This document shows positions 8,968-28,164 of a DNA stretch of 64,000 bases, piece by piece (within the stretch, counting starts at the first letter, position 1; each line of letters opens with the position of its first letter). The notes under the pieces are model-generated. The model had not been told where the DNA came from. It ran no database searches and saw only the letters and a list, made by a program, of their open reading frames with translations. Made by a program: the position numbers and the translations under genes. The stretch is from an uncultured bacterium (lineage in GTDB: Bacteria; Patescibacteriota; Microgenomatia; Levybacterales; UBA12049), in the NCBI GenBank assembly GCA_963826535.1, contig CAWGXL010000002.1:30503-94502 (forward strand), read 5' to 3'.

Positions 8968-9852
8968 ATGGAAAAAGATTATTATAAAGCACTAGGTGTT
9001 TCTAAAAGTGCAACTCACGATGAAATAAAACGTGCCTACCGTAAGCTTGCTCTTGAATTTCATCCGGACCGTAATAAAACCAAAGAAGCAGGTGATAAGT
9101 TTAAAGAAATAACCAAAGCTTATGAAGTACTGTCCAATGATGAAAAAAGAAAAATGTACGACCAGGTAGGCCATGCAGCCTTCGAACAAGGAGCAGGTCA
9201 GGGTCCCTTTGGAGGCGGGGGCGGGCAATCTTCCGGACAATATGGACCTTTCACATATAGTTATCAAACGAATGGAGGAGGAGCTGACTTTGATTTCGGA
9301 GGCTACTCTGACCCATTTGAAATTTTCGAACAATTCTTCGGCGGCGGTTCACCATTCGGGCAACGACAGCGGCGCCCTATATACTCAGCAGCAATCAGTT
9401 TTATGGACGCAGCGCTCGGTACAGAGAAGGAGTTAATAATTAATGGAGAAAAACAGAAAATTAAAATTCCCGCAGGAGTTGATAGCGGTTCTAGAATCCG
9501 ATTTGAGAAGTATGACATTGTGCTTGATGTCAAGCCGGACGCACGCTTTGCGCGCGAAGGATCTGATGTTGTATCGGAAAAAGAAATCTCTTTCACACAA
9601 GCCGCAATAGGCGCGGAAATATCAGTCGCAACTGTTGATGGAGATATTAAAATACGCATACCCGAAGGAACACAACCTGGTACCTTGATCCGCCTTCAAG
9701 GACGAGGCATCCCTCATCTCAGAGGCAGCGGACGGGGAAGTCACTATGTACGCATCAAAGTCGTCGTCCCCAAAAAACTTTCAAAACAACAAAGAGATCT
9801 CCTTGAAGAATTTCAGAAAGAAGAGCTACAAGCAAAAAAACGCTGGTTCTAA
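8968..9852 (+). CDS. DnaJ-family J-domain protein (CbpA-like class II: J domain, G/F region, DnaJ C-terminal domains, no CxxCxGxG zinc finger)
   Basis: J domain [34 protein letters not shown] with the HPD motif, then a Gly/Phe-rich linker ([21 protein letters not shown]...[20 protein letters not shown]) and a C-terminal substrate-binding region. There are no Cys repeats. Confidence 0.8.
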
Positions 9853-9879
9853 AATTTGTTAAAAGTTAATTAATATTAT

Positions 9880-12800
9880 ATGGGAGAAACCTCACTTGCC
9901 GAGTCAATCGACCCAAAATTGGTAAATTTTCAAAAAGACGTACCTACTCAGAAAAAACCAAATTTGTATCTAGTTAACCCTCCGCAGCATCTAGAATCTT
10001 CCGCTAAAAAGAAAAATGGCGAAGTTCCTCATCCACCGGAAAAATCAAAATTTATATTTGACAGATCAAAAATTGAAGATGAATCAAAAAACTTTGATAA
10101 AGCAATACTAGATCCACTTACCGGAGTTGACCCTGCTTTTGAAGCAGGAACAAAAAACAATTTAGATTACCTTTGCCGCACCGGCGATCTTGAATTTAAC
10201 ACCCCAAGAACACAGATTCTTCAGAATATTGTCGATAAAATGACAGGACAAGACGGTATTCATGAAAAACTTATGACCGTATCTTCAAAAAAAGCAGTTG
10301 AAGCACGAATTGTAATAAAAAACAAAGGCGAGGCAGATGACGCCTTTGTACTTCCGGACGGGACGATTGTTTTATCTCAATCACTTATTGATAAGCTTAC
10401 TTTGGATGAGGTTGGCGGAGTCATGGCTCATGAGATTAACCACATCAGAACCGAAACAGCGGCAAAAAAAGAAGCAGCCGGAGGTCATGCATTTGGAGTT
10501 TGCTGGGCGCATGAAACCGCGGAAGACGCACTCGCTCCTGACCTATTGGTAAAAGCCGACCTTAATAGTTTAGGATTCTCTTCAGCAATCATCAAAGTTT
10601 CGGGCGCGGAAAGAGGAAGTATACATCAAAGTGGACTTTCCCGTGGTTCACAAAGCGTAGGACAGCACTTCGGACTGGATTTCGGCACAAGCAGCCAAGA
10701 ACAGACGCCACTTCCGGAACTACTAAAAACAAAAGAACCAATAAAAAAAACCAATCTGGAAGTAATGGGACAGCTTATCCGCCAGCAGGAACCTGAAAAT
10801 GTAGAACAAACGCTCTCTCTTTTGCACCCGCATGACTTAAAAGACGCTTATCAACATATAATCAATCAGGAGCGAGGAGGTGAATATTGGTCTCCAAAGG
10901 CGCTAACCGAGGAACAGAAAAAAATTATTGAGCTTGGCAGCGCGTATTTAAATAATCGATTGGAAGAAGCAGGCTATTCGCAAACTGAAAGGAATCTATT
11001 TTTTATCTTTATGCAAAGTTATAGTGCACGTACCCCCAGCTTCAGCATGATAAAAACACCTGAAATGGTGCTTGAAGCGACACGCGCTTTACCGGACTAC
11101 ATTAACTTTGGCGGACATGGCGACATTCATAGATCTCTTTTTGATAAAGAAATTACCGGCAGTACGGTGGAATCTTTCCTAAACATAATAAGTGCTAGAA
11201 TGCATGATACCGGTATCTCTCCTCAAGGTCAGAATGAAATACCCATCACAAAAGAGATTCTATTAAAAACACTGACTGAGATAAATTCGTGGGAAAATAT
11301 CGCCAACGGTTTAAAAGTTAAAGGTAAAGCAGGAGTATTTACCCAGGTCATAGAAAGTTATATAAGTAAAACCTACATCAGTACAGATAATGCCTATAAA
11401 AAGTTGCTTGATGAAACAAAAACAAGAGAATTACTTCAGGAAGTAAAAGATTTAAATATCCCAATAAATCTGGATACCCTTCATACAAGAATGAGTGCCT
11501 CTCCGGAAGAAAGAAAAGTTTATGAATTATTTAAAGAATTTTTTGTAGAAAAGAGCCCTAAAACAACTGAGCAAAGTATAGACGATTTTCTTGACTCATA
11601 TATAGGTCTACCGGAAAATGAAAAAGGAGGGGAACTTGATTATTTCATGAAAATAATCCGCAAAGATTTCGATGAAAAAGAACTAACAGACGCTCAAAGA
11701 ATAAATTATGTCAAGTATTTCGGGTCAAAAGTAAAAGAGCTCGATCTCTCATCAAATATTGACCTAAACAAGGAACTCAATCTGAATATTAAAGAAATTC
11801 CAGACAAAGAGCTATTCCAAAGAAACTTATTGGAATTTAATATGCAATCAAATGCTGCACTCGCCCTGCTGCAAAAAGACGGTGAAGAATTTTATGATTA
11901 TATTAAAGTACTTATGGATAAATCAGGCATTGATATACAAAACTGTTCTCCGGCAGGAATATACAATCTCAGCGCGAGCTTAATTAATATAGACAAAGGT
12001 CACTTTTACAACTTTGACGAGAAAAGTGTTAAAGAGAAAGATTATGTCTTCTTATTAAACCAAATAAAAATTGAAAACATAAATAAGTATCTTCAATTGC
12101 CGTTTCTCCAAAAACTCATGGAAGAATCTGAAAAAAAATTATCTTTTACAACATTAAAAGATTTAAACAAGTATATTGATACTGAAATATTCCAAAAAAG
12201 GCTTGATAGTAGAAGCAGCAGTCATTTATTTGAAGACACACTAAGCTCAATAATTACCCTAAAACCGGTTAGGGAAAATTTCTTGGAATTACTACAACGC
12301 GGTGTCCCTGAAGATGAATACCCACAGTTGTATAAATTTATAAAATTAGAATATCCATCAGGTCCGCGTGAAAAAGAATTTCTCAGAGCATTAAATGTCA
12401 GGTATTTGGACAAACCAATTGGTTCCCAAAACGAATTACATGAGAGAATTGATTATCTTAAGCAAAATTTTAATTCCGTCGGACCGGAGGGGATGGCACT
12501 ACTTGCCAATCATATCAATACATTGCCTCAATATCTGCATTTCAGGAAAGAAATGGCAGAGCTATTGGCCACTTATTTGGATGGGTCAGGTATAGTCAGC
12601 GCTGTCGCGATGGGAGACTTCGCAACCTCGTTTTTTACAAAACACTTTGCGGATCTATTAGAAAGCAGCAAAACAGACAAGCAGACAAAAAGTAAATTAT
12701 CAACAGACATGGCCAAGGAATGGTTCAAATTTTTCTTTATAGAAGGATCTAATCGTGATAAAAGAGTGAATTTTGACAAAGAAACAGGCAAAATAGAATT

Positions 12801-14574
12801 AAACGGTACCACACGAGATATTTTCAAAACATTTGCTGATTTGGTAAAAGAAATAAAAGGTCTTTCTGAACTTAAGAGATTTGCTATCACCCACAAATCA
12901 CTGGTTGATACCGGAGGAGCATTAACAGACGACAACAACAGAAAGCAATTGGGAGAAATACTTAACGCATCTCTGGAAACAAAGTCAACTTTTATCAGTC
13001 ATGCTCTGCAAAAAGGCTGCGAGCTAGCACCGGCAGAATTTTTCAGCTTCCCAATCTCAAAAATGCTTGCTCCTTTATTATTTAGGAGCCTTGATACCAA
13101 TTATGTGGATCTTAAAAAAGTATCGAGGGAAGATTATGAGGATAAAGTTCCATATAAACAGCTTCCTGTATTATTCGGATCAGACACCAGAGACGTAACG
13201 CTTTTTGGCGCACATTACAAAGGGGAGACTAATACAAAAGTTGCCCAAATGGCCATAGAAAGCGATGATCAATACCACCTCGCAACCCAATTACTTGATC
13301 GAATACTTACAGAAGAACCTGTTATAGGGGCGCCACATAAAGAGCCTGACGAAAAAGTTAAAGTTGATCCCAATACTGAAGCGATTATTAGCGCTGTTGA
13401 AGCGAGCGGGCCACTTGGAAAAAGATGTCTTCAGCTCTCGCGCCAACTTCATGAATTTGCGCCGGCTACAGACAGACGTCTTGCGAATTCCTTTGATAGC
13501 ACACCCGGTCTGAATAAATTGTTTCTTTGGGAAAATCTGGTCAGACATATGGAAAATGGTCATGACCCCGAACTTTCGGATTTTATAAAAAATAACCTTG
13601 TGGAGCTTAATGATGTCATAGCTGGCGGCAGCCTAAATACTGTAGCCAGCGCTAAAGTCAAAGATGAAAAAGGTAATACACGAAGCGCAGTTCTTCGTTA
13701 TCTCAACCCCAACCCGGAAGTTTTTATCGCAAAAACCCATGAAACAGCGCAAAAAGTATTAGAAGCAATTGAACTGACGGGAAATTCGCAAGATAGAAAA
13801 TTTGCGCGTATGGGATTAGTTTTTACTGATCTCTCCCGGGAATGGTGTCTCCGCGATATCAATGACCCGACATATGAAAAAGATGATGATGAATTTCGGG
13901 AGACTATTAGGTCATTCAATGAGCAAAAAGCAACATCATTCTATGCACCGGAACGGCTATTTACCCATAGAAAATTGAAAGTTGAGGAAGAAGCAGAAGG
14001 CAGGACAATAAATAAACTATTAAATGATGCAAACATATCTGTTAATGAAAAAAAGGAAACGGTCAACCGCCTAATGAGCTTTTTTGACTTTCAATTAACA
14101 AACCTGGCAGGAACCTCAGAGACAGGAGAAAATTACTATCTCATCCATTCAGATCCTCATGTTGGCAATTACATGATGGAAAATGGAAACTTAACAGAAA
14201 ACGCCGTACTAGATAGAAACATGTATTTGAAAATTAACGGGCAAGAAGCAAATATGTTTCATAATTTATTAAATACAGGCGACTATAAAACTTTTATTGA
14301 TCCGTTTATAGATGCATTATTGGATAAGAATAAAGTAATAAATGAAACTACAAGAAACGAAAGTAAAAAAAGGATAATGCGCTCCATGAAAACCGAGTAT
14401 TTAAAACAACAAATGTATCGCATGGTAAAATTCCGTTCAACCGTTGATAATTTTTCATTGATACGTAGTCTTATGAATGAATGCGCGGAAGCTAAGTTGG
14501 ATATACCGCTTGAAATGCGCCTTATGATCAGAAATGTAGAAATATTCAGAAATTTGGCGCAAAAATATTCTTAA
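9880..14574 (+). CDS. giant multidomain protein (1564 aa): N-terminal soluble M48-like Zn-metallopeptidase domain and C-terminal UbiB/ABC1-like atypical kinase domain
   Basis: The N-terminal region ...ADDAFVLPDGTIVLSQSLIDKLTLDEVGGVMAHEINHIRTE...AHETAEDALA fits the M48 pattern (NAF..G..ivl..gLl..l...El.aVlaHElgH, followed by the E..AD..A third-ligand motif). The C-terminal region GGSLNTVASAKVKDEKGNTRSAVLRYLNPN...HSDPHVGNYMMENG...VLDRNMY matches ABC1/UbiB motifs (ASIGQVH...VAVKVQRP; HADPHPGN), with K->R in VAVK and DFG->DRN. There is no signal peptide or TM segment. The ~900-aa Lys/Glu-rich middle has no motif I can name. Confidence 0.6.
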   Translation: MGETSLAESIDPKLVNFQKDVPTQKKPNLYLVNPPQHLESSAKKKNGEVPHPPEKSKFIFDRSKIEDESKNFDKAILDPLTGVDPAFEAGTKNNLDYLCRTGDLEFNTPRTQILQNIVDKMTGQDGIHEKLMTVSSKKAVEARIVIKNKGEADDAFVLPDGTIVLSQSLIDKLTLDEVGGVMAHEINHIRTETAAKKEAAGGHAFGVCWAHETAEDALAPDLLVKADLNSLGFSSAIIKVSGAERGSIHQSGLSRGSQSVGQHFGLDFGTSSQEQTPLPELLKTKEPIKKTNLEVMGQLIRQQEPENVEQTLSLLHPHDLKDAYQHIINQERGGEYWSPKALTEEQKKIIELGSAYLNNRLEEAGYSQTERNLFFIFMQSYSARTPSFSMIKTPEMVLEATRALPDYINFGGHGDIHRSLFDKEITGSTVESFLNIISARMHDTGISPQGQNEIPITKEILLKTLTEINSWENIANGLKVKGKAGVFTQVIESYISKTYISTDNAYKKLLDETKTRELLQEVKDLNIPINLDTLHTRMSASPEERKVYELFKEFFVEKSPKTTEQSIDDFLDSYIGLPENEKGGELDYFMKIIRKDFDEKELTDAQRINYVKYFGSKVKELDLSSNIDLNKELNLNIKEIPDKELFQRNLLEFNMQSNAALALLQKDGEEFYDYIKVLMDKSGIDIQNCSPAGIYNLSASLINIDKGHFYNFDEKSVKEKDYVFLLNQIKIENINKYLQLPFLQKLMEESEKKLSFTTLKDLNKYIDTEIFQKRLDSRSSSHLFEDTLSSIITLKPVRENFLELLQRGVPEDEYPQLYKFIKLEYPSGPREKEFLRALNVRYLDKPIGSQNELHERIDYLKQNFNSVGPEGMALLANHINTLPQYLHFRKEMAELLATYLDGSGIVSAVAMGDFATSFFTKHFADLLESSKTDKQTKSKLSTDMAKEWFKFFFIEGSNRDKRVNFDKETGKIELNGTTRDIFKTFADLVKEIKGLSELKRFAITHKSLVDTGGALTDDNNRKQLGEILNASLETKSTFISHALQKGCELAPAEFFSFPISKMLAPLLFRSLDTNYVDLKKVSREDYEDKVPYKQLPVLFGSDTRDVTLFGAHYKGETNTKVAQMAIESDDQYHLATQLLDRILTEEPVIGAPHKEPDEKVKVDPNTEAIISAVEASGPLGKRCLQLSRQLHEFAPATDRRLANSFDSTPGLNKLFLWENLVRHMENGHDPELSDFIKNNLVELNDVIAGGSLNTVASAKVKDEKGNTRSAVLRYLNPNPEVFIAKTHETAQKVLEAIELTGNSQDRKFARMGLVFTDLSREWCLRDINDPTYEKDDDEFRETIRSFNEQKATSFYAPERLFTHRKLKVEEEAEGRTINKLLNDANISVNEKKETVNRLMSFFDFQLTNLAGTSETGENYYLIHSDPHVGNYMMENGNLTENAVLDRNMYLKINGQEANMFHNLLNTGDYKTFIDPFIDALLDKNKVINETTRNESKKRIMRSMKTEYLKQQMYRMVKFRSTVDNFSLIRSLMNECAEAKLDIPLEMRLMIRNVEIFRNLAQKYS

Positions 14575-14640: not shown

Positions 14641-14949
14641 ATGAAAAAATCTTTTCGCGATAAAGTTTATGAAATTACAAAAAAAATTCCGAAAGGGAAA
14701 GTTGCGACCTACGGCCAAATCGCCGCAATGGCCGGTAGCCCAAGAGCAGCACGGGCTGTCGGGATGTTAATGAAAAATAATCCTGATATGCCAAGAACTC
14801 CTTGTCATCGCGTAGTTGCATCCGATGGCCGCTTGACAGGTTATTCAGCCAAAGATGGTATCAAAACAAAAAAGGAGATGCTTGTCGATGAAGGCGTGGT
14901 TTTTATTGGAGATAGAGTAAATTTGGTTAAGTCACAATGGAAGCCGTAG
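14641..14949 (+). CDS. stand-alone methylated-DNA-[protein]-cysteine S-methyltransferase DNA-binding domain protein (Ogt/MGMT C-terminal domain only)
   Basis: 102-aa ORF with the ...TYGQIA...AARAVG...NP...PCHRVV... signature. The PCHR active-site Cys is present and the N-terminal domain is absent. Confidence 0.75.
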   Translation: MKKSFRDKVYEITKKIPKGKVATYGQIAAMAGSPRAARAVGMLMKNNPDMPRTPCHRVVASDGRLTGYSAKDGIKTKKEMLVDEGVVFIGDRVNLVKSQWKP

Positions 14950-14959
14950 AGAATTCTGC

Positions 14960-14990
14960 TTGACTTATTTACTCTTTTTTAATATATAAT
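14960..14990 (+). promoter_or_regulatory. sigma70-like promoter candidate for the purF-purN gene (TTGACT ... TATAAT)
   Basis: TTGACT at 14960-14965 and TATAAT at 14985-14990, with a 19-bp spacer. It lies about 115 nt upstream of the 15106 start in an AT-rich leader. Confidence 0.35.
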
Positions 14991-15105
14991 ATAAGTAATA
15001 TGCGTCACCATTATTGCAAAAGAGCTGCCAAGACTGGGTAGAATATCCATAACTGAACCTCGCTTAGCGGGGTTTTTTAATTTTAGAACTTATTTTGTAT
15101 TAATT

Positions 15106-17274
15106 ATGATAAACCGAAAGGCGTTCGGTAATTTAGTTGTTTTGAAAGAGCAATTAAAAGAGAAGTGCGGAGTCATTGGGGTTTGGTCTGGAGAAAAAAT
15201 TGCGCCTTATTATGTACGAAAAGGTTTGTCCACACTGCAGCATCGAGGTCAAGAAAGTGCCGGAATTAGCATTTACACTCCTCAAGACAAAATAAAAACT
15301 TATTCAGGCATGGGTCTTGTTCTCGGTGTGCTGACAGCCGAAGTTCTTAAGCAGCTGGGAGAAAGTATGGCTGCTATTGGACATAATAGATATTCTACCA
15401 GCGGCAGTACCAGTTTAAGTAATGCCCAACCTATTACGCTCAAAAAGGGAAAATTTGAATTGAGCATAGGACATAATGGCAATATCCCTGATTGCGAGTA
15501 CCTTGGAGAACAAATAGAAGAAAAACAAAAAGAAGGAGAAACCAGCGATACTCATCTAGTCGCAAAGCTCCTATTGCAAGAACGGCCAAACTATTCAGAT
15601 TGGGACGAAACCCTAAAACAAGTATTACCGCGAATTCGCGGAGCTTTTTGTTTTGTAATTTTAACTGAAGACGGCAACATTTACGGCGCCCGCGATACAT
15701 ATGGTATACGGCCCTTTTGTTTAGGAAAATTTGAGAATGGGTGGATTATTGCCTCAGAATCTGTTGCTGTTGATTTAACAGGTGCCGAATTTTTGCGCGA
15801 TATTAAACCGGGAGAGATTATTAAGATCAGCTTTGATGGGAAGCTTACCTCTTTCTTTTTCGGTGCGCCATCAAGAGAACAGAATTGTATTTTTGAATAT
15901 ATTTATTTTTCCCGCCCGGATAGTTTTGAAAATGGCATTAGGATAAGAAAAGGGCGTGAAGAATCAGGCAGACTGTTGGGACAGCGAATTCTGAAAAAGG
16001 CAATCTTGGCAGATGTCGTGGTCCCTGTCTTTGACTCCGGATATCCGGCGGCGAAAGGAGTGGCGCATGTTCTTGGATTGCCTCTTGTGGACGCTATTAC
16101 TGTAAGTCATTATATCGGCCGAACTTTTATCCAACCGGGGCATGAAAATAGAAAGGCAGCAGTGAATGGCAAGCATAATATTATACCCGATGATATTAAG
16201 GGTATGCGAATTATTGTGGTTGATGATTCAGCAGTACGATTAACAACGAGCAAGCGGTTGACTCGTGAATTAAATGCAGCAGGTGCAAAGAGTGTATTTA
16301 TGGCTATTGCCAGCCCTCCAGTTGTTAACCACTGCGATATGGGCATTGATATGAAAAGTAAAAAAGAACTGCCGGCTTCTCTTTGGGAACATGAACCATT
16401 TGAGCTGATTGAAGAAAATGTTGCCAAGTTTATAGGCTCAAATGCAGCCGTGTATTTGCCAATTGAAGATTTAACCCGCGCTTTAGGAGGCGCAAAAGAG
16501 GATTTCTATCACTATCCGTTTGGTGGACCGCATCCTATACGCGATGCACAGCATAAATTTCCCAAGAGGAAGAAAACTATAAATCCTAAACCAAGAATAG
16601 CAATTTTAATTTCCGGAACTGGCACAAATCTTCAGGCAATTATCGATGGTGTAAAAACTCATGATATTGAGGCAGAAATCGTTTCAGTGGTATCGAACAA
16701 AAAGGACGCCTATGGTCTCAAAAGAGCCAAAGAGAATAATATTCCAACCCTCGTTCTTCCTATGACAGGAAAACTGAATGATAAAGTCGCGAGAAAAGAA
16801 TTTGAGTTGAAGCTTCTTGCTCATATCAAAAAGACCGCCGCCGACCTTATTGTTTTGGCTGGCTGGATGTTGGTTTTGGGGGATGAGTTCCTATCTGCTT
16901 TAGCAAAATTGGAAGTGCCTGTTATTAATCTTCATCCCGCGTTATTATCAAAAGGCAATGAAGATCATATCGCTACATCACGCGGGACTATCCCGGTTAT
17001 CCGTGGTATAGGTACACAAGCAATAAAATATGCTTTTGACAAAAACTTACTTGTTTCAGGAGTGACAGTCCATCAAATACTCCCCAAAAATAATTTTGAT
17101 ATCGGCCCGGTCATTTTAAAAGAGGAAGTAAGAAGAAGAAAAGAAGATACACTTGAAACATTTGAGAAACGAACTCATGAAGCGGAATATCGGGTTTTAC
17201 CAACAGCGATCAAAAGAGTTTTGCACGTCATGAAACAAGGAGTAGATGTAAGCCGCGGGGAGTTTTATTGGTAA
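15106..17274 (+). CDS. purF: fusion protein: amidophosphoribosyltransferase (PurF, with ~20-aa propeptide) fused to phosphoribosylglycinamide formyltransferase (PurN)
   Basis: The PurF part has the Ntn class-II amidotransferase start ...KEKCGVIGVW after a propeptide, and a PRTase motif ...GMRIIVVDDSAVRLTTSKRL.... The C-terminal ~200 aa read PRIAILISGTGTNLQAIIDG...VINLHPALLSK...GVTVHQI, the PurN formyltransferase signatures. Confidence 0.8.
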   Translation: MINRKAFGNLVVLKEQLKEKCGVIGVWSGEKIAPYYVRKGLSTLQHRGQESAGISIYTPQDKIKTYSGMGLVLGVLTAEVLKQLGESMAAIGHNRYSTSGSTSLSNAQPITLKKGKFELSIGHNGNIPDCEYLGEQIEEKQKEGETSDTHLVAKLLLQERPNYSDWDETLKQVLPRIRGAFCFVILTEDGNIYGARDTYGIRPFCLGKFENGWIIASESVAVDLTGAEFLRDIKPGEIIKISFDGKLTSFFFGAPSREQNCIFEYIYFSRPDSFENGIRIRKGREESGRLLGQRILKKAILADVVVPVFDSGYPAAKGVAHVLGLPLVDAITVSHYIGRTFIQPGHENRKAAVNGKHNIIPDDIKGMRIIVVDDSAVRLTTSKRLTRELNAAGAKSVFMAIASPPVVNHCDMGIDMKSKKELPASLWEHEPFELIEENVAKFIGSNAAVYLPIEDLTRALGGAKEDFYHYPFGGPHPIRDAQHKFPKRKKTINPKPRIAILISGTGTNLQAIIDGVKTHDIEAEIVSVVSNKKDAYGLKRAKENNIPTLVLPMTGKLNDKVARKEFELKLLAHIKKTAADLIVLAGWMLVLGDEFLSALAKLEVPVINLHPALLSKGNEDHIATSRGTIPVIRGIGTQAIKYAFDKNLLVSGVTVHQILPKNNFDIGPVILKEEVRRRKEDTLETFEKRTHEAEYRVLPTAIKRVLHVMKQGVDVSRGEFYW

Positions 17275-17308
17275 CCCGCCTTACGCATAACATGATAAAA
17301 TAAGAACG

Positions 17309-18217
17309 ATGACCTTTCTTGAAAAATTCGAACTCCTGAAAAAATCAATTCCTGTTCCGGCCATAACGATTGACAAATCTACAATTGATTGTGAATACGT
17401 AGATTATGCCTATGGAAGCAAAAATTGCTATTATTGTTTTACTAGCAATCTACTTAAAGACAGTATGTATTCAACAATGGGATGGGGCGATAAGTTAGTA
17501 GATTGTACTTATTTAGCAGAGTCGGAAAGATGTTTTCAATGCGTTGATTGCACTAAATGTTATAGCTCTACCTATTTAATGGATTGTAATAGCACTACTG
17601 ATTGCCATTTCTCGGCATTTTTAAACTCTTGCAACGATTGTTTTGGTTGTGTTGCATTAACTCATAAGAAATATTGTATTTTCAACAAACAATACACAAA
17701 AGATGAATATATGAAAAAAGTTGAAGAATTAAAAAAAGAAAAACCTGAAAAGATTCTAAAACAAATGCTGGAATTAAAAAAACAAATACCTCATCCCGCA
17801 AGCATACAATACAATAATGAAAAAAGCCCTTATGGTGATTATATATATGATTCAAAGAACGTTTATTGGGGTTTTAATTGTTGGTATGGAGAAAATTGTG
17901 GATATATCTATACAGGCGGTACGTCGAAAAACTCATGGGACACTTTTTTCTCAGGCGGATTCAAATCTAAAGGAACTATTTCTGAACGAGTTTATGAACA
18001 AGTAGATTCAGTCGTATGTTACGATTGTGCATTTCTTAACAATTGTAATAACTGCACTAATTGTTATTACAGCGCGGATATGAGAAACTGCTCAGACTGC
18101 TTCGGTTGCGTTGGGCTATCAAAGAAAAAATACTGTATCCTCAATAATCAACTAACCAAAGACCAATACGAAAAAGCTGTTAAAAATATCAGAAAAGAAC
18201 TTGGGTGGAAATCTTAG
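17309..18217 (+). CDS. Cys-rich repeat protein, paralog 2, embedded in the purine operon
   Basis: 302-aa ORF about 65% identical to 4890..5807 with the same C-x2-C repeat architecture and N-terminus (MTFLEKFELLKKSIPVPA). It starts 35 bp after purF-purN and overlaps the purD start. Confidence 0.6.
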   Translation: MTFLEKFELLKKSIPVPAITIDKSTIDCEYVDYAYGSKNCYYCFTSNLLKDSMYSTMGWGDKLVDCTYLAESERCFQCVDCTKCYSSTYLMDCNSTTDCHFSAFLNSCNDCFGCVALTHKKYCIFNKQYTKDEYMKKVEELKKEKPEKILKQMLELKKQIPHPASIQYNNEKSPYGDYIYDSKNVYWGFNCWYGENCGYIYTGGTSKNSWDTFFSGGFKSKGTISERVYEQVDSVVCYDCAFLNNCNNCTNCYYSADMRNCSDCFGCVGLSKKKYCILNNQLTKDQYEKAVKNIRKELGWKS

Positions 18218-18233
18218 TCTTGGAAAGATAGAT

Positions 18234-19535
18234 ATGGTAAAAAAGTCAGTCCTCATCATCGGCAACCTAGCCCGCGAACATGCCCTGGGTTGGAAACTTA
18301 AACAATCTGCCAAAGTAGGAAAAATTTATTTTGCTCCCGGAAATGTGGGCACTGGTCTAATTGGTGAGAATACAGGAATTGATGCCCTTGATATTAAGTC
18401 ATTAGTAAAATTTGCTAAAACGCATAATATTTATTTGACCGTTGCCGGCCCTGACGCATCGCTTGCTGCCGGAGTAGTTGACGAGTTTAAAAAAGCTAAA
18501 ATGAAAATTTTCGGACCCACTAAGAATGCGGCACAAATTGAATCATCAAAAGCCTTTTCGAAACAGTTGATGAAAGAAGAAAATATCCCGACAGCAGTTT
18601 TTAAAAAATTTACCGATCCCTCAAAAGCCAACAAATATGTCAAAACACTAAGCTTGCCGATTGTCATAAAAGCCAGTGGATTGGCATCGGGTAAAGGAGT
18701 AATTATCGCAAAAACCTTAGACGTAGCGCAAAGATTAATTGATGATATTTTAATTAAGAAAATCTTCGGAGAATCAGGCAATGAAATAATCATTGAAGAA
18801 TTTTTAGAAGGCCATGAAATTTCCATCCACGCTTTTTGTGACGGAAAAACCGTTTCAGTATTTCCTGTAAGTAAAGATCACAAGTCTATTTTTGAAAACA
18901 ACCTCGGGCCAAACACCGGCGGCATGGGAACGATTGCACCTGTGCCGGGTTTAAATAAATCTTTTTTGAAAGAAGTAAATCAAACAATTGTTCAACCGGC
19001 TCTCAATGGCATGAAGAAAAAAGGAATTACCTTTACCGGTTGTTTATATCCGGGATTAATTTTAACCAAACAAGGACCAAAAGTACTCGAATTTAATTCC
19101 CGTTTTGGCGACCCGGAAATGGAATCTTACATGAGGATTTTAGAGACCGATATTTTTGATATTTTAGAAGCATGTGTCAACAGTACACTTTCTCAACTGA
19201 ATATCAAATGGAAAAAACAATTCGCATGTTGTATAGTCCTTGCATCCGCTGGTTATCCAGGAACAGTAAAGACAGGAGAAATTATACATGGCCTTAAACT
19301 TACTCCTCCCTTGATAAAGGGAGGTCGGGAGGGATTTAATAATGACGTTGCAGTATTCCATTTCGGAACCAAAATTGAAAATGGGAACTTAGTCACAAAT
19401 GGCGGCAGGGTCCTCGGCATAACAGCAATCGGAAATACTTTGGATCAGGCTTTAGATAAAGCATATGCTATGATTGGAGAAAAAGGAATCCATTTTTCGG
19501 GAATGCAATATAGACGGGATATTGGAAGATCATGA
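18234..19535 (+). CDS. purD: phosphoribosylamine--glycine ligase (GAR synthetase)
   Basis: The PurD N-terminus reads MVKKSVLIIGNLAREHALGWKLKQSAKVGKIYFAPGNVGT. The ATP-grasp body is present. The C-terminus reads ...NGGRVLGITAIGNTLDQALDKAY. The track ORF begins at an upstream TTG (18201), and ATG 18234 is the more likely start. Confidence 0.85.
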   Translation: MVKKSVLIIGNLAREHALGWKLKQSAKVGKIYFAPGNVGTGLIGENTGIDALDIKSLVKFAKTHNIYLTVAGPDASLAAGVVDEFKKAKMKIFGPTKNAAQIESSKAFSKQLMKEENIPTAVFKKFTDPSKANKYVKTLSLPIVIKASGLASGKGVIIAKTLDVAQRLIDDILIKKIFGESGNEIIIEEFLEGHEISIHAFCDGKTVSVFPVSKDHKSIFENNLGPNTGGMGTIAPVPGLNKSFLKEVNQTIVQPALNGMKKKGITFTGCLYPGLILTKQGPKVLEFNSRFGDPEMESYMRILETDIFDILEACVNSTLSQLNIKWKKQFACCIVLASAGYPGTVKTGEIIHGLKLTPPLIKGGREGFNNDVAVFHFGTKIENGNLVTNGGRVLGITAIGNTLDQALDKAYAMIGEKGIHFSGMQYRRDIGRS

Positions 19536-22534
19536 AAAACCAAACAGCAAGAATAGAAATATTTTCAAAAGTATTTGATACGCGGGCTGTGACATCAAAG
19601 AACCGATTGATAAAACTGAGTTTAGTAACTGGAGATATTGATCTGTGGATTTCCGATGTCTATACGATTGATAAAACTTTTACCTCACCCCAACTTCAGA
19701 GGATTGCATCAATGCTCGCAAACCCTGTAATCCAAGACACAGTCATCCGTAAACAATTTGAAACTAAAACGTTTGACAATACTAAGCCATTTTCTTTCGC
19801 AATCGAGATCGGATTTCTTCCCGGTGTTACCGATAATGTAGCTAATACTGCGCGGGAAGGGATTGAAGATTTATTAAAAACAAAATTTAGTGAACAAGAA
19901 GGCGTTTATTCTTCACAACTATTTTTTCTGAAAGGAAAAATAACAGAACATGAAGCTTTAAAAATCGCCGAGAGTCTTTACAACCCACTTATCCAACGGG
20001 TTCATCTGAAAGACTTTAAAACATTTAAGAAAGATGGCGGTATGGAATTTATAGTGCCCCGCGTTATTATTACGCAAACCCCAAGTGTGACACAGGTTAA
20101 TCTTAAAGTTTCCGATAAAGAACTCCAGACAATCGGCAAATCAGGTATTGCCAACCCTGATGGAACTCGTCGCGGGCCGCTCGCCTTGAATTTGGCTTAT
20201 ATGAAAACCATACAAGCATTTTTTAAAAAGCTGGGAAGAAAACCAAACGATATAGAACTTGAATCCATTGCGCAGACCTGGTCTGAGCATTGTAAGCATA
20301 CGATTTTTGCCGATCCGATTGATGAACTCAAAGAGGGAATATTTAAAACATATATCAAAGGCGCAACCGAAAAGATTAGGAAGAAAAAGGGCAAGAGTGA
20401 TTTTTGCGTTTCCGTCTTTACCGATAATTCCGGAGCGATTGTTTTTGACGAAAAATATTTGGTAACACATAAAGTTGAAACACATAACAGTCCGTCAGCT
20501 CTTGATCCATTTGGTGGAGCAATTACAGGAATTGTTGGCGTAAACCGGGATACCATCGGATTTGGATTAGGAGCAAAGCCGGTTGCCAATTTTTATGGAT
20601 TTTGTTTTGCAGACCCCCGATTGGATATACCATTATATAAGGGAAAAAATAAAACGCAGAGAATGCTATCTAGTCAGCGTATTATGGATGGGGTTATCGC
20701 GGGCGTAAACAGCGGAGGCAACCAATCCGGAATTCCAACACCGCAGGGCTTCGTATATTTCAATGAGCGATTCCGGGGAAAACCACTCGTCATTGTAGGA
20801 ACAGTAGGGCTCATTCCCAGAAAAATAAAATCAAAATTTTCGCATGTAAAGAAGGCAAAACCCGGAGATTATATCGTCATGGTAGGTGGACGTGTTGGAA
20901 AAGACGGTGTTCATGGCGCGACATTCTCCTCAGAGGCTTTGGATTCCGGCAGTCCGGCAACATCTGTGCAGCTCGGTGATCCCATCACTCAAAAGAAATT
21001 AAGCGATGCAATAGTAAAAGAAGCGCGGGATATTCTTGCTTTTAACAGTATTACCGATAATGGCGCCGGCGGACTTTCCTGTTCGGTTGCAGAAATGGCC
21101 AAAGAGTCAGGCGGATGTCTGGTCGAACTTGAGAAAGTACCATTGAAATATCCTCATCTCGATCCATGGGAAATATGGGTTTCCGAGTCACAGGAACGAA
21201 TGACACTTGCAGTACCGAAAAAGAATTGGAAGAAGTTTTTTGATTTGATGAAAAGGCGGGGGGTTGAGGCAACAGTTATCGGAGAATTTACAGATAGCGG
21301 AAAGTGTATTGTAAAATTTAACTCAAAAACAATTATGAATATGGATTTGAACTTTTTGCATTACGGATTACCCAAGAGACCAATGAAAACGAACAAACCA
21401 CAAATCACGAATCACGAATCACGAATACCGGAAAATAAAGATTTAAATAAATCATTGCTACAAATGCTTTCAAGATTAAATATTGCGAGTTTCGAATTCA
21501 TCTCCCAACAATATGATCATATCGTGCAAGGCAATGCTGTACTTGGACCATTGCAAGGATGGGGAAAGGTTAATGGGGACACATCGGTAATAAGACCTGT
21601 TCTTTCATCTCAAAAAGGAGTGATTTTGTCTCAAGCTTTGTACCCAACATATAGCGAAATTGATCCGTATCGTATGGCAGGGGCGAATATTGATACGGCA
21701 ATTCGAAATGCAGTAGCAGCCGGCGCAAATCCTGACTATTTGTCACTTCTTGATAATTTTTGTTGGTGCAGCGCAAACGAGCCCGAGCGGCTTTATCAGT
21801 TAAAACTAGCAGCAAAAGCATGTTTCGATTTTGCCGTTGAGTATGGAACCCCATTCATTTCCGGCAAAGATAGCATGTTCAATGATTTTAATGGATTTGA
21901 TAAAGATGGTAAACCCATAAAAATTTCTGTCCTACCTACACTTCTTATTTCCTCATTCGGAGTTATTAATGACATAACCAAAGTTGTCTCACTGGATGCA
22001 AAATTGCCGGGAGATTTAGTCTATATTTTAGGCGAATCTTTTGATGAATTAGGCGGCTCTGAATATTTAGCAATGTTGAGTGAACGAGATAGAAAACAAT
22101 ATTTTAGTAAAAATATACCAAATGTTAATGCGCCGCGAAATAGGAAATTATATTCCGCATTGTATACCACAATCCAAAAGAATTTGGTTGCATCAAGCAT
22201 TAGTATAAGACATGGAGGATTGGGAGTAGCGCTGGCAAAAAAAGCGCTTGGCGGAATGCTCGGAATTACTGTTGATCTAAAACTAATTCCAGGAAACGTA
22301 AAGCGCGATGATAGTGTGTTGTATTCGGAAAGCCAAGGACGAATACTAGTTACTGTTGCGCCGGAAAATAAAACAGCATTTGAAAAGATATTTCGAGGGA
22401 ATTCATACTCGCTTGCTGGGAGGGTTACGAAAGAACCAAATATAATGATAAAAGGATTACAAGGAAATGAAATAATAAACCTTAGTTTAGCAAAAACATT
22501 GGAAGCATACAGAGAAACATTTAAAAATTTTTAA
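19532..22534 (+). CDS. purL: phosphoribosylformylglycinamidine synthase subunit PurL with an N-terminal PurS-like extension
   Basis: The 1000-aa body is PurL (FGAM synthase II), with AIRS/AIRS_C-like repeats (...VETHNSPSALDPFGGAITGIVGVNRD...) and overall co-linearity. The first ~150 aa (...LQRIASMLANPVIQDTVI...) resemble PurS (LLANTVIEDY). Confidence 0.75.
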   Translation: MKNQTARIEIFSKVFDTRAVTSKNRLIKLSLVTGDIDLWISDVYTIDKTFTSPQLQRIASMLANPVIQDTVIRKQFETKTFDNTKPFSFAIEIGFLPGVTDNVANTAREGIEDLLKTKFSEQEGVYSSQLFFLKGKITEHEALKIAESLYNPLIQRVHLKDFKTFKKDGGMEFIVPRVIITQTPSVTQVNLKVSDKELQTIGKSGIANPDGTRRGPLALNLAYMKTIQAFFKKLGRKPNDIELESIAQTWSEHCKHTIFADPIDELKEGIFKTYIKGATEKIRKKKGKSDFCVSVFTDNSGAIVFDEKYLVTHKVETHNSPSALDPFGGAITGIVGVNRDTIGFGLGAKPVANFYGFCFADPRLDIPLYKGKNKTQRMLSSQRIMDGVIAGVNSGGNQSGIPTPQGFVYFNERFRGKPLVIVGTVGLIPRKIKSKFSHVKKAKPGDYIVMVGGRVGKDGVHGATFSSEALDSGSPATSVQLGDPITQKKLSDAIVKEARDILAFNSITDNGAGGLSCSVAEMAKESGGCLVELEKVPLKYPHLDPWEIWVSESQERMTLAVPKKNWKKFFDLMKRRGVEATVIGEFTDSGKCIVKFNSKTIMNMDLNFLHYGLPKRPMKTNKPQITNHESRIPENKDLNKSLLQMLSRLNIASFEFISQQYDHIVQGNAVLGPLQGWGKVNGDTSVIRPVLSSQKGVILSQALYPTYSEIDPYRMAGANIDTAIRNAVAAGANPDYLSLLDNFCWCSANEPERLYQLKLAAKACFDFAVEYGTPFISGKDSMFNDFNGFDKDGKPIKISVLPTLLISSFGVINDITKVVSLDAKLPGDLVYILGESFDELGGSEYLAMLSERDRKQYFSKNIPNVNAPRNRKLYSALYTTIQKNLVASSISIRHGGLGVALAKKALGGMLGITVDLKLIPGNVKRDDSVLYSESQGRILVTVAPENKTAFEKIFRGNSYSLAGRVTKEPNIMIKGLQGNEIINLSLAKTLEAYRETFKNF
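21403..21423 (+). repeat. (AATCACG)x3 heptanucleotide tandem repeat inside the purL coding sequence
   Basis: aatcacg aatcacg aatcacg, encoding ...ITNHESRIP.... The 7-nt unit is not a multiple of 3. Confidence 0.8.
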
Positions 22535-22548
22535 TTGAAAATTATTTT

Positions 22549-23346
22549 ATGAAACCGAAAGTACTTGTTTTTTCAGGATACGGATTAAATTCAGAAGAAG
22601 AAACCTCTTATGGATTTGAATTGGCTGGAGCAATTGGAGATATTGTGCATGTTAATGATTTAGCTGATCGTTTATATGACCTTAATAATTATCAAATCTT
22701 AGCTTTTCCAGGTGGTTTTTCTTATGGCGATGACACAGGAGCCGGCAACGCTTATGCAAATAAACTTAGAAATCATTTGTGGGAAAAAGTTGAAAAATTT
22801 ATAAGTCAGGATAAATTGGTTATTGGAATTTGTAATGGCTGCCAAATTATTACCAATCTTGGAATTGTTCCCGCATTTTATAAAAGCTATGGAAAGCGAC
22901 AGGTCGCGCTTCTTCATAATGACTCCGCCCGCTTAGTTACACGCTGGACTGATATGAAAGTCGCGACAAAATCCCCTTGGCTTGAAGGAATAGAAATACT
23001 CTCACTCCCAATTGCACATGGAGAGGGAAAATTCTTTGCAGACAAAGAAAGCCTTAAACAGTTACATAATAAAAAACAAATAGCGCTACAATATATTCAC
23101 GGACCAATAAGTACATATCTCGATGTACCGGCTAATCCGAATGGATCGGTAGATGATATCGCAGGCATTATTGATGAAACTGGCCGTATTTTGGGACTTA
23201 TGCCACATCCCGAACGGGGGATGTTTTTCGTCCAGCGCCCGGATAGCGGTCTACTTAAAGAAAAATACAGACGGGAGAAAAAAGCGCTGCCTGAATTTTC
23301 GGATGGATTACAAATATTTAAAAATGCTGTAAACTATTTTAAATAG
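22549..23346 (+). CDS. purQ: phosphoribosylformylglycinamidine synthase glutaminase subunit PurQ
   Basis: Class-I glutamine amidotransferase with catalytic GICNGCQ and a ...MPHPER... His region. It lies immediately downstream of purL. Confidence 0.85.
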   Translation: MKPKVLVFSGYGLNSEEETSYGFELAGAIGDIVHVNDLADRLYDLNNYQILAFPGGFSYGDDTGAGNAYANKLRNHLWEKVEKFISQDKLVIGICNGCQIITNLGIVPAFYKSYGKRQVALLHNDSARLVTRWTDMKVATKSPWLEGIEILSLPIAHGEGKFFADKESLKQLHNKKQIALQYIHGPISTYLDVPANPNGSVDDIAGIIDETGRILGLMPHPERGMFFVQRPDSGLLKEKYRREKKALPEFSDGLQIFKNAVNYFK

Positions 23347-23386
23347 TACTGTTTGCAATATTGAGCTTATAGTGATATAATAATTT

Positions 23387-24400
23387 ATGGAGGCTAAAAA
23401 AGTAATCATTGGTACCCTTGGAAGCCATACAGCGCTGCAGATCCTCAAAGGCGCCAAAGATGAAGGCTTCTCCACGCTTCTAATAACTGTTCCCAAGCAT
23501 AAAGCTTTTTACTCAACATTTCCTTTTGTCGATAAGACTATTGTTATTCCTACTTTTGCAGATTTTCCATCAATAGAAAAAGAATTAATCAAAAAACAGG
23601 TAATCCTCATACCGCATGGTTCGTACGTGGCATATCTAGGATTTGAGAAAAATAAAAATATGCATGTCCCTTATTTCGGCAATAAAGACGTGTTGGATTG
23701 GGAGGAAAATAGAGACAAGCAACGTATGTGGTTGCTTTCAGCAGGCATTACTATGCCTGGACAATTTGACTTAAACGATAAAATTTTATATCCGGTTATT
23801 GTTAAGTCATTTGGAGCAGCAGGAGGAAGCGGATATTTTATGGCTAAGGATAAACCCGATTTAAAAAGCAAATTGGAAGATTTTGGACAAAAAAAATATA
23901 TTATACAGCAGTACATCGTTGGCGTTCCTCTTTACGTACACTATTTTTATTCTCCTTTGAGTGATAAGCTTGAAATAATGAGCATGGATAGAAGATATGA
24001 GACCAATGTGGATGCACTTGGCAGAGTTCCGTTTGGGATTCAAAAAGATATTGCATTAAATCCGTCTTTTGTCGTTGTCGGTAATAGCGAACTGGTGCTT
24101 CGGGAGGGAATGCTGTCAACAGCATATGATATGGGCCGAAAAGTAATTGACACCTCAAGAAAACTAATTGGCAAACGCGGAATTTTCGGCCCTTTTTGTT
24201 TGGAAACTATTATTACCCCTGACCGTAAATTTTCTGTAATTGAAATTTCCTGCAGAATAGTTGCAGGGACGAATCTATTTATTAACGGCTCCTCTTATTC
24301 TTGGTTATATTACAATGAGCCGATGAGTACTGGAAGAAGAATCGCAAGAGAAATTAAAAATGCTATTAAAGATTCTAAATTAGAATTATTGTTAGATTAA
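23387..24400 (+). CDS. purP: 5-formaminoimidazole-4-carboxamide ribonucleotide synthetase, archaeal type (PurP), copy 1
   Basis: Near co-linear with Methanocaldococcus PurP: IGTLGSHTALQILKGAKDEGFST, HYFYSPL, GPFCLE, GRRIAREIKNAI (compare TLGSHTSLHILKGAKLEGFST, HYFYSPL, GPFCLQ, GQRIAREIK). Confidence 0.8.
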   Translation: MEAKKVIIGTLGSHTALQILKGAKDEGFSTLLITVPKHKAFYSTFPFVDKTIVIPTFADFPSIEKELIKKQVILIPHGSYVAYLGFEKNKNMHVPYFGNKDVLDWEENRDKQRMWLLSAGITMPGQFDLNDKILYPVIVKSFGAAGGSGYFMAKDKPDLKSKLEDFGQKKYIIQQYIVGVPLYVHYFYSPLSDKLEIMSMDRRYETNVDALGRVPFGIQKDIALNPSFVVVGNSELVLREGMLSTAYDMGRKVIDTSRKLIGKRGIFGPFCLETIITPDRKFSVIEISCRIVAGTNLFINGSSYSWLYYNEPMSTGRRIAREIKNAIKDSKLELLLD

Positions 24401-24404
24401 CTTT

Positions 24405-25511
24405 ATGAAAAATTCTATATCAAAAAAAGATATAACAATAGCGACTCTTGGCAGTCATTCCGCTTTGGATGTGAGTAGGGGAGCCAAGGACGAAGGATTT
24501 CGTACAGTTGTCGTAGCTCAAAAAGGAAGAGAAAAAACCTACAGTCATTACTTTAAGACTTCTGGGAATACTGGTTGCGTAGACGAATGCATTGTTCTTG
24601 ATAAATTTTCAGACATTATGAATCAAGATATACAAAAACAACTTATTGACCGAAATGCAATTTTTGTCCCCAATCGTTCATTTGAAGTATATATAAATGA
24701 TTATAATGCAATAGAAAACAAATTTAATGTCCCAATGTTTGGAAATAAAAAATTGCTCAGAATTGAAGAAAGAGGTTTCAAGCCTAATCAATATGACTTG
24801 CTGGATTCTGCAAAAATTAATTACCCGAAACAGTTTAAAGATGCTATGGATATAGATCGCTTATGCATAGTTAAAGTTCTGGAAAAAGAACGAGGATTCG
24901 AAAGAGCATTCTTTCTTGCGAATAGTTATAAGGAGTATAAAAAGAAAGCTCAAAACAGAATCAAAAAGGGAGAGACTACTGAAGAATTGTTAAAAAAAGC
25001 CGTCATTGAGGAATTCGTTCCAGGTGTTCATGTTAACTTTAATTATTTCTATAGCCCACTTACTAAAACATTAGAACTACTTGGAACTGATACAAGAAGA
25101 CAAACTAATCATGAAGGAATTTACAAACTTTCTCCTGAGTATCAACAACAATACCAGAAGTTAGGCGGACGTATTAAATATGAAGAAGCAGGTCATACCG
25201 CTGTAACAGTACTTGAATCCATGCTTGAACAAGCCTTTGAAATGGGTGAGCGATTTGTTAAAGCAAGTAAAAAATTCGCTTCTCCAGGAATTATTGGACC
25301 GTTTGCATTGCAATCGATTATTATTCCCGGTCCACCAAAGAAAGATATTGTTGTTATTGACGTTTCTCCACGCATGCCTGGCTCTCCCGGTATCGCCGCA
25401 ACTCCATATAGTAAATATTTATTTGGAGAATCCATAAGCGTTGGTAGAAGAGTTGCCATGGAGATAAAAGAAGCTATAAAATTAAATAGACTAGAAGAAA
25501 TTGTAACTTAG
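24405..25511 (+). CDS. PurP-family ATP-grasp protein, paralog 2
   Basis: 368-aa ORF with IATLGSHSALDVSRGAKDEGFRT, NYFYSPL, GPFALQS and GRRVAMEIKEAI. It is more divergent than copy 1, in tandem 4 bp downstream. Confidence 0.7.
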   Translation: MKNSISKKDITIATLGSHSALDVSRGAKDEGFRTVVVAQKGREKTYSHYFKTSGNTGCVDECIVLDKFSDIMNQDIQKQLIDRNAIFVPNRSFEVYINDYNAIENKFNVPMFGNKKLLRIEERGFKPNQYDLLDSAKINYPKQFKDAMDIDRLCIVKVLEKERGFERAFFLANSYKEYKKKAQNRIKKGETTEELLKKAVIEEFVPGVHVNFNYFYSPLTKTLELLGTDTRRQTNHEGIYKLSPEYQQQYQKLGGRIKYEEAGHTAVTVLESMLEQAFEMGERFVKASKKFASPGIIGPFALQSIIIPGPPKKDIVVIDVSPRMPGSPGIAATPYSKYLFGESISVGRRVAMEIKEAIKLNRLEEIVT

Positions 25512-25520
25512 TTATTTATT

Positions 25521-28048: not shown

Positions 28049-28164
28049 AAAAAACGTTTTGGATTTTAGATTTTGGTCATTTGACATTGTTTCGGATTTG
28101 GCGCTTTGGTATTAGAATTTTAATTGATTTATAGAAATGTTATACTTTTAGTAGTTTTAATATT

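Follow-up and report, generated by a model that had tools for sequence, protein, structure and literature searches.

De novo purine synthesis starts with glutamine phosphoribosyl pyrophosphate (PRPP) amidotransferase, PurF, whose product phosphoribosylamine is the substrate of PurD and not of PurN. PurF of the Bacillus subtilis type (type I; structures 1AO0 and 1GPH, and the plant enzyme ASE2, 6LBP) has a propeptide before the catalytic cysteine, which is removed by autoprocessing, and an N-terminal nucleophile (Ntn) glutaminase domain joined to a phosphoribosyltransferase (PRTase) fold. Glycinamide ribonucleotide (GAR) formyltransferase, PurN, is a free enzyme in Escherichia coli (1CDE/1C2T) and Bacillus halodurans (3P9X) and the C-terminal domain of human GART. 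Eukaryotic GART (PurD-PurM-PurN), with the mammalian purinosome core (PPAT, GART, FGAMS), and the haloarchaeal PurN-PurH1 protein, in which two folate-dependent formyltransferases are joined (PMC3261824), are the described fusions that come closest to the gene reported here. This gene, which we call purFN, encodes PurF and PurN on a single polypeptide and lies at positions 15106..17274 of a 64,000-nucleotide stretch (contig CAWGXL010000002.1; hereafter, the window) from an uncultured bacterium of the Patescibacteriota. All features of the window given below are on the forward strand unless stated otherwise.

The purFN protein shares with type I PurF the propeptide, the Ntn glutaminase and PRTase folds, the PRPP loop, the flexible loop, and two of the four iron-sulfur (Fe-S) cysteine positions. 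Unlike those enzymes, its C-terminus runs on into PurN, and the C-terminal CxxC motif is lost in the subclade of the window. The PurN half has the fold, the Asn-x-His...Asp residues and the GxGxN phosphate loop of known PurN, but it carries a beta-hairpin insertion and is fused to PurF instead of being free or fused to PurD and PurM. As in GART and the purinosome core, PurN is covalently tied to early-pathway enzymes, and neither protein joins only consecutive activities (steps 2, 5, and 3 in GART; steps 1 and 3 in purFN; background in PMC10912719), which suggests co-assembly over a simple two-site tunnel. The differences from GART are the partner (PurF instead of PurD and PurM), the bacterial host, and the short linker, which is predicted to be rigid. 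PurN-PurH1 and purFN are both prokaryotic fusions of PurN with a purine enzyme; the former follows a shared-cofactor logic, whereas purFN joins PurN to the committed first step. The archaeal purine review lists PurN-PurH1 only and does not describe a PurF-PurN fusion (PMC3261824), and none was described in a survey of how the last two steps vary or in a regulatory review from 2024, nor did targeted searches of full texts reveal one, which agrees with an earlier remark that the arrangement is unusual. Apart from one marginal profile score and an incomplete set of Fe-S ligands, the parts of purFN are ordinary members of known families, and the architecture is an undescribed yet unsurprising variant of known enzymes. 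We conclude with good confidence that purFN encodes a true bifunctional enzyme of the de novo purine pathway, one that is ancient and has been maintained by selection.

Architecture and conservation of purFN

The purFN open reading frame (ORF) starts with ATG, encodes 722 amino acids (aa), contains no internal stops, and is predicted to specify a bifunctional amidophosphoribosyltransferase/GAR formyltransferase. A preliminary description of the window, made from the sequence alone, had read it as PurF followed by GAR transformylase, with steps 1 and 3 on one polypeptide and no PurD domain between them, and profile scans agreed with this reading. In the N-terminal part, the Pfam profiles GATase_6 (54.1 bits, cut-off 27) and GATase_7 (50.3 bits, cut-off 25) matched aa 86-221 and Pribosyltran (31.5 bits, cut-off 26.3) matched aa 288-400, all above their curated cut-offs. 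In the C-terminal part, Formyl_trans_N matched aa 497-702 well above threshold (134 bits, cut-off 26.1), and the NCBIfam PurN profile TIGR00639 matched aa 497-707 with 160.8 bits, reaching its equivalog cut-off of 150.1. Neither Pfam nor NCBIfam found GARS or AIRS domains in the 722-aa protein, and purD and purM are separate genes. The motifs named in the preliminary description were also located: KEKCGVIGVW at aa 18-27, which places about 20 aa before the catalytic Cys21; the PRTase loop D373-D374-S375 within VVDDSAVR; PRIAILISGTGTNLQAI at aa 497-513; and NLHPALL at aa 608-614. A separate PurN made from an internal start was ruled out because reading of the sequence revealed no conserved in-frame start codon near the linker.

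Both halves aligned over their full length with solved PurF and PurN structures. The closest structure for aa 21-466 was B. subtilis PurF (1ao0; 274 bits, template modelling score [TM-score] 0.87), with plant ASE2 also close, and the PurN half superposed on B. halodurans PurN (3p9x) with a TM-score of 0.87. No solved chain covered both the PurF and the PurN halves.

The fusion is conserved across a whole lineage. Among 5.8 billion proteins searched, at least 120 clusters (90% identity) of 700 to 760 aa had the same domain set; they were 53 to 79% identical to the window protein at 97 to 100% coverage and came from four sources (NCBI, ENA, JGI, and Logan assemblies). An exhaustive search with the PurN half gave about 15 representatives at the 50% level, 716 to 761 aa long, with a C-terminal PurN of the purFN type that was as little as 36% identical; the representatives examined were PurF-PurN by Pfam or alignment. 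At the level of loci, the fusion was found in 5 species-representative genomes, on 8 contigs identified by exact look-up, and at 23 metagenomic loci identified by a junction-specific scan; 30+ independently assembled loci have the PurF-PurN architecture. A genome scan with the single purFN protein returned no loci, and the scan based on full-length alignment was dominated by ordinary PurF and gave just the 5 genomic fusion loci; the scan restricted to the junction was specific. Residue conservation was calculated from an alignment of 80 fusion sequences.

Labelled hosts of the fusion were mostly Patescibacteria (Microgenomates). Submitters named the relatives Candidatus Levyibacteriota (loci L004 and L005), which NCBI taxonomy places in the Patescibacteria/Microgenomates group, and Candidatus Roizmanbacteria (P0109/L088). 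Conflicting third-party labels (Gammaproteobacteria, Xanthomonadales, Saccharimonadales, Acidoferrales, and Limnocylindrales) were judged unreliable, and it is the relatives labelled Levyibacteriota and Roizmanbacteria that would place the window. The window itself encodes bacterial proteins (DprA, TopA, DnaJ, and Pol III delta), has a G+C content of 35 to 45%, and contains numerous ORFs without a family match. In databases, hundreds of fusion sequences bear single-function names, either 'amidophosphoribosyltransferase' or 'formyltransferase family protein'. Reconstructions of pathways in candidate phyla radiation (CPR) bacteria may thus count purF or purN as absent though one gene encodes both, and the pathway annotation of CPR genomes is affected by these labels.

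Junction, catalytic residues, and iron-sulfur ligands

The junction between the two enzymes is the most conserved part of the protein. The motif FYHYPFGGPHPIR (aa 467-479; 16504..16542), or F467-Y-x-x-P-F-G-G-P-H-P-I-R479, had the highest conservation in the entire protein (majority frequency 0.90) and takes the place of the CxxCFxGxxP motif of Fe-S ligands. The basic linker that follows occupies aa 480-496 in the window (16543..16593) and 18 aligned residues in the family, with the consensus xKQxxFPKxKKKIxGKPK. It was 18 residues long and free of gaps in 79 of the 80 sequences, and this length held in fusions that were just 34 to 48% identical overall, which argues for one ancient fusion event and for a structurally constrained connection. 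Against the nearest relatives, the ratio of nonsynonymous to synonymous differences (pN/pS) was 0.16 to 0.19 for the junction and linker and 0.20 to 0.27 for the catalytic domains; the connection is thus under purifying selection no weaker than that acting on the catalytic domains. A structure model of purFN was built with AlphaFold2 from the 80-sequence alignment and had a mean predicted local distance difference test (pLDDT) score of 88.7 and a predicted TM-score (pTM) of 0.90, with a linker pLDDT of 92 to 94. Only the propeptide and the mobile PRTase loop were disordered. Because the residues are split about 480/240 between the two enzymes, a pTM of 0.90 would imply a confidently fixed relative orientation of the halves.

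These properties bear on a neutral explanation, in which the stop codon between adjacent purF and purN genes was lost and the resulting beads-on-a-string protein was kept by drift in small genomes, with no integration or kinetic gain beyond co-expression. PurF-PurN fusions do seem to arise easily, as shown by one independent case with a short and unrelated linker that remains a singleton (L084), and PurN is also fused to PurD in both orders, to PurM, and to PurC. The hairpin insertion of the PurN half is not limited to fusions, and a PurD-PurL fusion in one relative (L002) is likewise a one-off. However, drift does not sit well with a linker length that is fixed in 79 of 80 sequences, even in the most divergent members, with selection on the junction and linker as strong as on the catalytic domains, or with a pTM of 0.90 and a linker pLDDT above 90. 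In addition, no split descendants were present among the best 120 matches listed. We therefore regard neutral retention as rather unlikely.

In the PurF half, the propeptide (aa 1-20; 15106..15165) is presumably removed to expose Cys21. Its length varied from 0 to 38 aa across the family and its sequence was variable, with E19-K20-C21 conserved, and its pLDDT was below 50. By analogy with B. subtilis-type PurF, the purFN propeptide would be autoprocessed. The Ntn glutaminase domain covers approximately aa 21-255 (15166..15870; boundary approximate, from the alignment to 1ao0), and the PRTase domain covers approximately aa 256-466 (15871..16503; from profiles and alignment). Cys21 (15166-15168), which pairs with Cys1 of 1ao0, was invariant in the 80 fusions, as were R95/Y96, H123-N124-G125-N126, D148, and D373-D374-S375 of the PRPP loop (16222-16230). 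The flexible PRTase loop (aa 334-355; 16105-16170) was the sole internal stretch with pLDDT below 50 and matches the known mobile loop of the PRTase.

The [4Fe-4S] ligand set of type I PurF, comprising four cysteines, is incomplete in the window protein, which retains Cys261 (15886-15888) and Cys410 (16333-16335) only. In the window's subclade, Y468 and P471 stand in place of the C-terminal CxxC (DFYHYPFGGPHP, versus SFCYACFTGDYP in Arabidopsis, 6lbp). Deep-branching fusions retain CxxC, for example in MCTHCFGGKHP, so the loss is derived in the window's subclade, and the possibility that the fusion itself caused it was ruled out. Judged by its residues, PurF of this subclade bears a propeptide and probably lacks an Fe-S cluster, a combination that falls outside the usual two-type classification of PurF. 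The family holds members with the full ligand set and members that have lost two ligands, and it thus offers a natural experiment on the role of the PurF cluster.

The PurN domain covers aa 497-722 (16594..17271), as defined by profiles, alignment, and the structure match. The S503/G506/N508 loop, N608, H610, D665 (17098-17100), and E694 were invariant in the 80 fusions, with N608-L609-H610 at 16927-16935; N608, H610, and D665 were also invariant in standalone PurN relatives. We take these three residues to correspond to the catalytic N106, H108, and D144 of E. coli PurN. After NLHPALL, an insertion of 15 to 17 aa (approximately aa 615-634; 16948..17007) was modelled as a beta-hairpin with strands at E621-624 and E627-630 and a pLDDT of about 93 to 95. 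Its conserved residues were T624, S625, G627, P630, R633, and G636, in the pattern xxVxTSxGxxPxxRG. The insertion was found in none of the solved PurN structures; it was present in standalone PurN proteins of about 215 to 250 aa. The hairpin therefore marks a subtype of PurN and is not an adaptation to fusion, and its role as a fusion-specific docking element was ruled out.

Two relatives have a cluster of folate-biosynthesis genes immediately before purFN, on its upstream side (L088, 379-5494; L086, 3661-5520). The cluster includes FolP, FolB, GTP cyclohydrolase I (FolE), an F420_ligase-like gene, DHFR-like and GATase genes, and an 880-aa PabC-PabB-HPPK fusion (Aminotran_4, Chorismate_bind, and HPPK domains). 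The cluster is notable, since it is often assumed that CPR bacteria do not make their own cofactors. The folate genes that adjoin purFN in these relatives indicate that the PurN cofactor is available in the clade and support a folate-dependent PurN there, and 10-formyl-tetrahydrofolate may be the formyl donor in the window genome as well.

The same residues and neighbours speak to a second alternative, that the PurN half has been re-purposed, either as a regulatory or folate-sensing domain or for another donor or acceptor, and that GAR is formylated elsewhere, for example by a PurP-like ATP-grasp paralogue. This idea draws on the two PurP paralogues in the operon, since the function of cluster II PurP is unproven (PMC3261824), on the unusual hairpin that adjoins the catalytic NxH motif, and on a window without folate genes. 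It is very unlikely, given a score above the TIGR00639 equivalog cut-off; the Asn/His/Asp triad, GxGxN loop, and E694 that are invariant in 80 sequences; the folate-synthesis genes next to purFN in relatives; a window that holds neither purT nor a second purN; and the existence of the same PurN subtype as a standalone protein. The last alternative, an assembly chimera, missed stop, or frameshift at the junction, is excluded for the family by the recurrence of the same in-frame junction, with its conserved motif, in at least 120 clusters as well as in 30+ loci, obtained from independent samples with independent assemblers, and by a large, mainly synonymous nucleotide divergence at the junction (synonymous sites saturated against the nearest relatives from other samples, pS ~0.7), and it is extremely unlikely in the window genome itself.

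Proposed mechanism and a possible docked PurD

For a bifunctional purFN, the following mechanism is proposed. The 20-residue propeptide would be removed, and Cys21 of the Ntn glutaminase domain would hydrolyse glutamine. The ammonia would move to the PRTase domain and displace the pyrophosphate of PRPP, forming phosphoribosylamine (step 1). PurD, a protein of its own whose gene is the next of the pur genes, would convert phosphoribosylamine to GAR (step 2), and the C-terminal PurN would formylate GAR using 10-formyl-tetrahydrofolate (step 3). The well-packed 18-residue linker would hold the halves as one rigid body, giving a 1:1 stoichiometry and keeping steps 1 and 3 permanently close, and this unit would be produced together with PurD.

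Several observations weigh against a maintained bifunctional enzyme. Both activities, as well as any kinetic benefit of the fusion, are predictions, and the single rigid body formed by the halves is suggested solely by the pTM and pLDDT of a model. The NCBIfam PurF profile TIGR01134 matched aa 21-467 (profile positions 1-422 of 432) with 332.5 bits against an equivalog cut-off of 350, a narrow miss. In the window's subclade, two of the four Fe-S ligands have been lost, and in the window an inserted ORF parts purFN from purD. No folate or one-carbon genes were found in the 64-kb window, and the operon performs its later formylation through the formate-dependent PurP. The shortfall of the TIGR01134 score is marginal; the lineage is divergent and its C-terminal end is altered, and both its fold and its catalytic residues speak for a place in the PurF family. 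On the other side stand a gene that is real and conserved, catalytic residues present in both halves, a constrained connection, and a linked purD.

The preliminary description had also suggested that the fusion could channel phosphoribosylamine. As stated, this is not supported, because PurD, the consumer of phosphoribosylamine, lies outside the fusion; the fused active sites are non-consecutive, and the fusion alone cannot channel. Channelling would be tenable solely in a modified form, in which PurD, the product of a separate gene, would dock on the body formed by PurF and PurN. The invariant order of purFN and purD and the frequent overlap of their start and stop codons fit this idea. In its fullest version, a rigid PurF-PurN would be the permanent core of a bacterial purinosome-like particle in which PurD, translationally coupled, docks between the two sites and phosphoribosylamine passes through GAR to formylglycinamide ribonucleotide unreleased. 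We consider this version unlikely; if true, it would provide the first stable and structurally tractable PurF-PurD channelling complex. Kinetic evidence exists for the channelling of phosphoribosylamine from PurF to PurD, yet no complex has ever been detected, and one has been sought in E. coli since 1995 without success (PMC10912719). A rigid PurF-PurN with a coupled purD is therefore a promising system in which to seek it.

Leader and pur operon

The region upstream of purFN contains three elements in a fixed order. A promoter-like element (14960..14990) consists of TTGACT (14960-14965), a 19-nucleotide (nt) spacer, and TATAAT (14985-14990); it was found with a dedicated script, since a consensus scan with spacers of 16 to 18 nt passes over the 19-nt spacing. 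At 22 other non-redundant purFN loci, TTGACA, a spacer of 17 to 19 nt, and TATAAT or TATAAA occupied the equivalent position. A leader mini-ORF of 13 codons (MRHHYCKRAAKTG; 15000..15041) follows, with a TAG stop at 15039-15041, and a gap of 13 nt separates this stop from the stem of a terminator-like structure. The latter (15055..15085; identified by a terminator scan) is a GC-rich hairpin, GAACCTCGC-TTA-GCGGGGTTT (15055-15075), with a T-run, and sits 30 nt upstream of the purFN ATG (15106). The hairpin was kept at the equivalent position in nearly all loci in which purFN is the first gene. At L082 and L005 the upstream neighbour is divergent and the hairpin is still present, so it is not the terminator of an upstream gene there.

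The leaders compared with that of the window (14960-15105) were from L001-L005, L081, L082, L086, L088, and L093-L110, which represent independent samples. Among 23 non-redundant leaders, 21 had a mini-ORF that started 5 to 19 nt past the -10 element and stopped 5 to 14 nt ahead of the stem; in the remaining two, the leader ORF reads through the hairpin. In shuffled leaders this arrangement occurred 3.2 +/- 1.6 times, and never more than 9 times over 2000 shuffles, a comparison that ignores the relatedness among the sequences. The leaders are several unrelated sequence types that share one geometry. Their peptides are 4 to 28 aa long and unrelated between types, with just 4 codons in one type; in another type, the peptide MVT[HRL]F... 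is conserved and the stop position holds TAA, TAG, or TGA. The mini-ORF is presumably translated.

With a reporter in E. coli, termination fell from ~90% to <10% when the distance of a stop codon upstream of a terminator was shortened from 28 to 5 nt (PMC4824070), and the stop-to-stem gaps of 5 to 14 nt fall within this ribosome-sensitive range. Like the E. coli pyrBI attenuator, the purFN leader combines a promoter, a short leader ORF, and an intrinsic terminator, so placed that the hairpin would be kept from folding by a ribosome that stands where the leader ORF ends. It differs from pyrBI in preceding a purine and not a pyrimidine operon, in peptides as short as 4 aa, and in the lack of a purine-rich bias. 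By this analogy, the leader looks like a candidate translation-coupled attenuator of the pur operon, of the pyrBI style, and its conservation suggests a previously undescribed regulation of purine synthesis in CPR bacteria. Two other candidates were rejected. For a riboswitch, Rfam 15 at the gathering threshold matched neither the window nor any of 7 related loci, Rfam at E <= 10 gave chance-level matches only over 14930-15130, the fold of the window leader had z = -1.7, and no aptamer-like core was common to the leader types. For a purine-rich leader that senses nucleoside triphosphates, the purine content of the leader was 0.53, versus 0.54 for the coding strand.

The purFN gene is the first of a pur operon (15106-30772) with the order purFN, a Cys-rich ORF, purD, purL, purQ, purP, purP', purB, purK, purE, purC, and purM. 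The GAR synthetase gene purD (step 2; 18234..19535, probable ATG at 18234 in an ORF that opens at 18201) has GARS_N, GARS_A, and GARS_C domains. Domain profiles identified purL (1000 aa; 19532-22534) and purQ (22549-23346), and two purP paralogues (23387-24400 and 24405-25511) have DUF1246/DUF1297 domains. They are followed by purB (25521-26924), purK (26921-28048), purE (28165-28698), purC (28695-29666), and purM (29663-30772). In all 14 loci examined with a downstream flank, purD was the next pur gene after purFN, and it overlapped or abutted the purFN stop codon at L001, L003, L004, L005, L084, L085, L086, L087, and L088. Where the locus was long enough, purL then followed purD, except at L084 and L086.

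The Cys-rich orphan ORF (302 aa; 17309..18217) lies between purFN and purD in the window only and was absent at all related loci examined. Two tandem modules of about 150 aa make up the ORF; both end in CFGCV..KKKYCI, and they share 41% identity (E = 1e-26). The ORF had no match in Pfam, NCBIfam, or PDB, and marginal matches only in PHROG. Its restriction to the window indicates an insertion, probably outside the system, and it was ruled out as a component by its absence from relatives.

The two adjacent archaeal-type PurP proteins (formate-dependent 5-formaminoimidazole-4-carboxamide ribonucleotide synthetase) adjoin purB in this bacterial operon, and the pair resembles the paired arrangement of PurP from clusters Ib and II in Crenarchaeota (PMC3261824). 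The window operon showed no gene for inosine monophosphate cyclohydrolase (PurH2 or PurO). A PurH-type gene (MGS and AICARFT_IMPCHas domains) occurs in L084 and L088, which are more distant relatives, and L088 also has PurP. The window PurL (19532-22534) carries an N-terminal extension of about 220 aa ahead of the PurL core. At L085, a 1275-aa PurL incorporates a PurQ domain (9492-13319). A 1406-aa PurD-PurL fusion at L002 (12176-16396) was not corroborated in sister genomes, and the proposal that PurF-PurN and PurD-PurL together are evidence for a four-enzyme complex was dropped because PurD-PurL is confined to this locus.

Elsewhere in the window, a 1564-aa ORF (9880-14574) has as its sole match a short M48-peptidase HExxH region (aa 144-195), and a 1001-aa ORF on the minus strand (60988-63993) has no match in Pfam.

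An intact, independently derived PurF-PurN of 683 aa was found at L084 (4336-6387; JGI 3300040800, 62% G+C). In this protein CxxC is kept, the linker is short and unrelated, and PurN is canonical; purD lies over the stop codon, and the gene adjoins a fusion of PurC with PurE. The Chloroflexota PurF proteins among which it stands alone are unfused, and it may reflect either an error in sequencing or a fusion of very recent date; as a singleton, this second origin was given little weight as an argument for selection. Other prokaryotic fusions of PurN were PurD-PurN, PurN-PurD, PurM-PurN, and PurN-PurC (P0163, P0169, P0186, P0223, P0231, and P0233).

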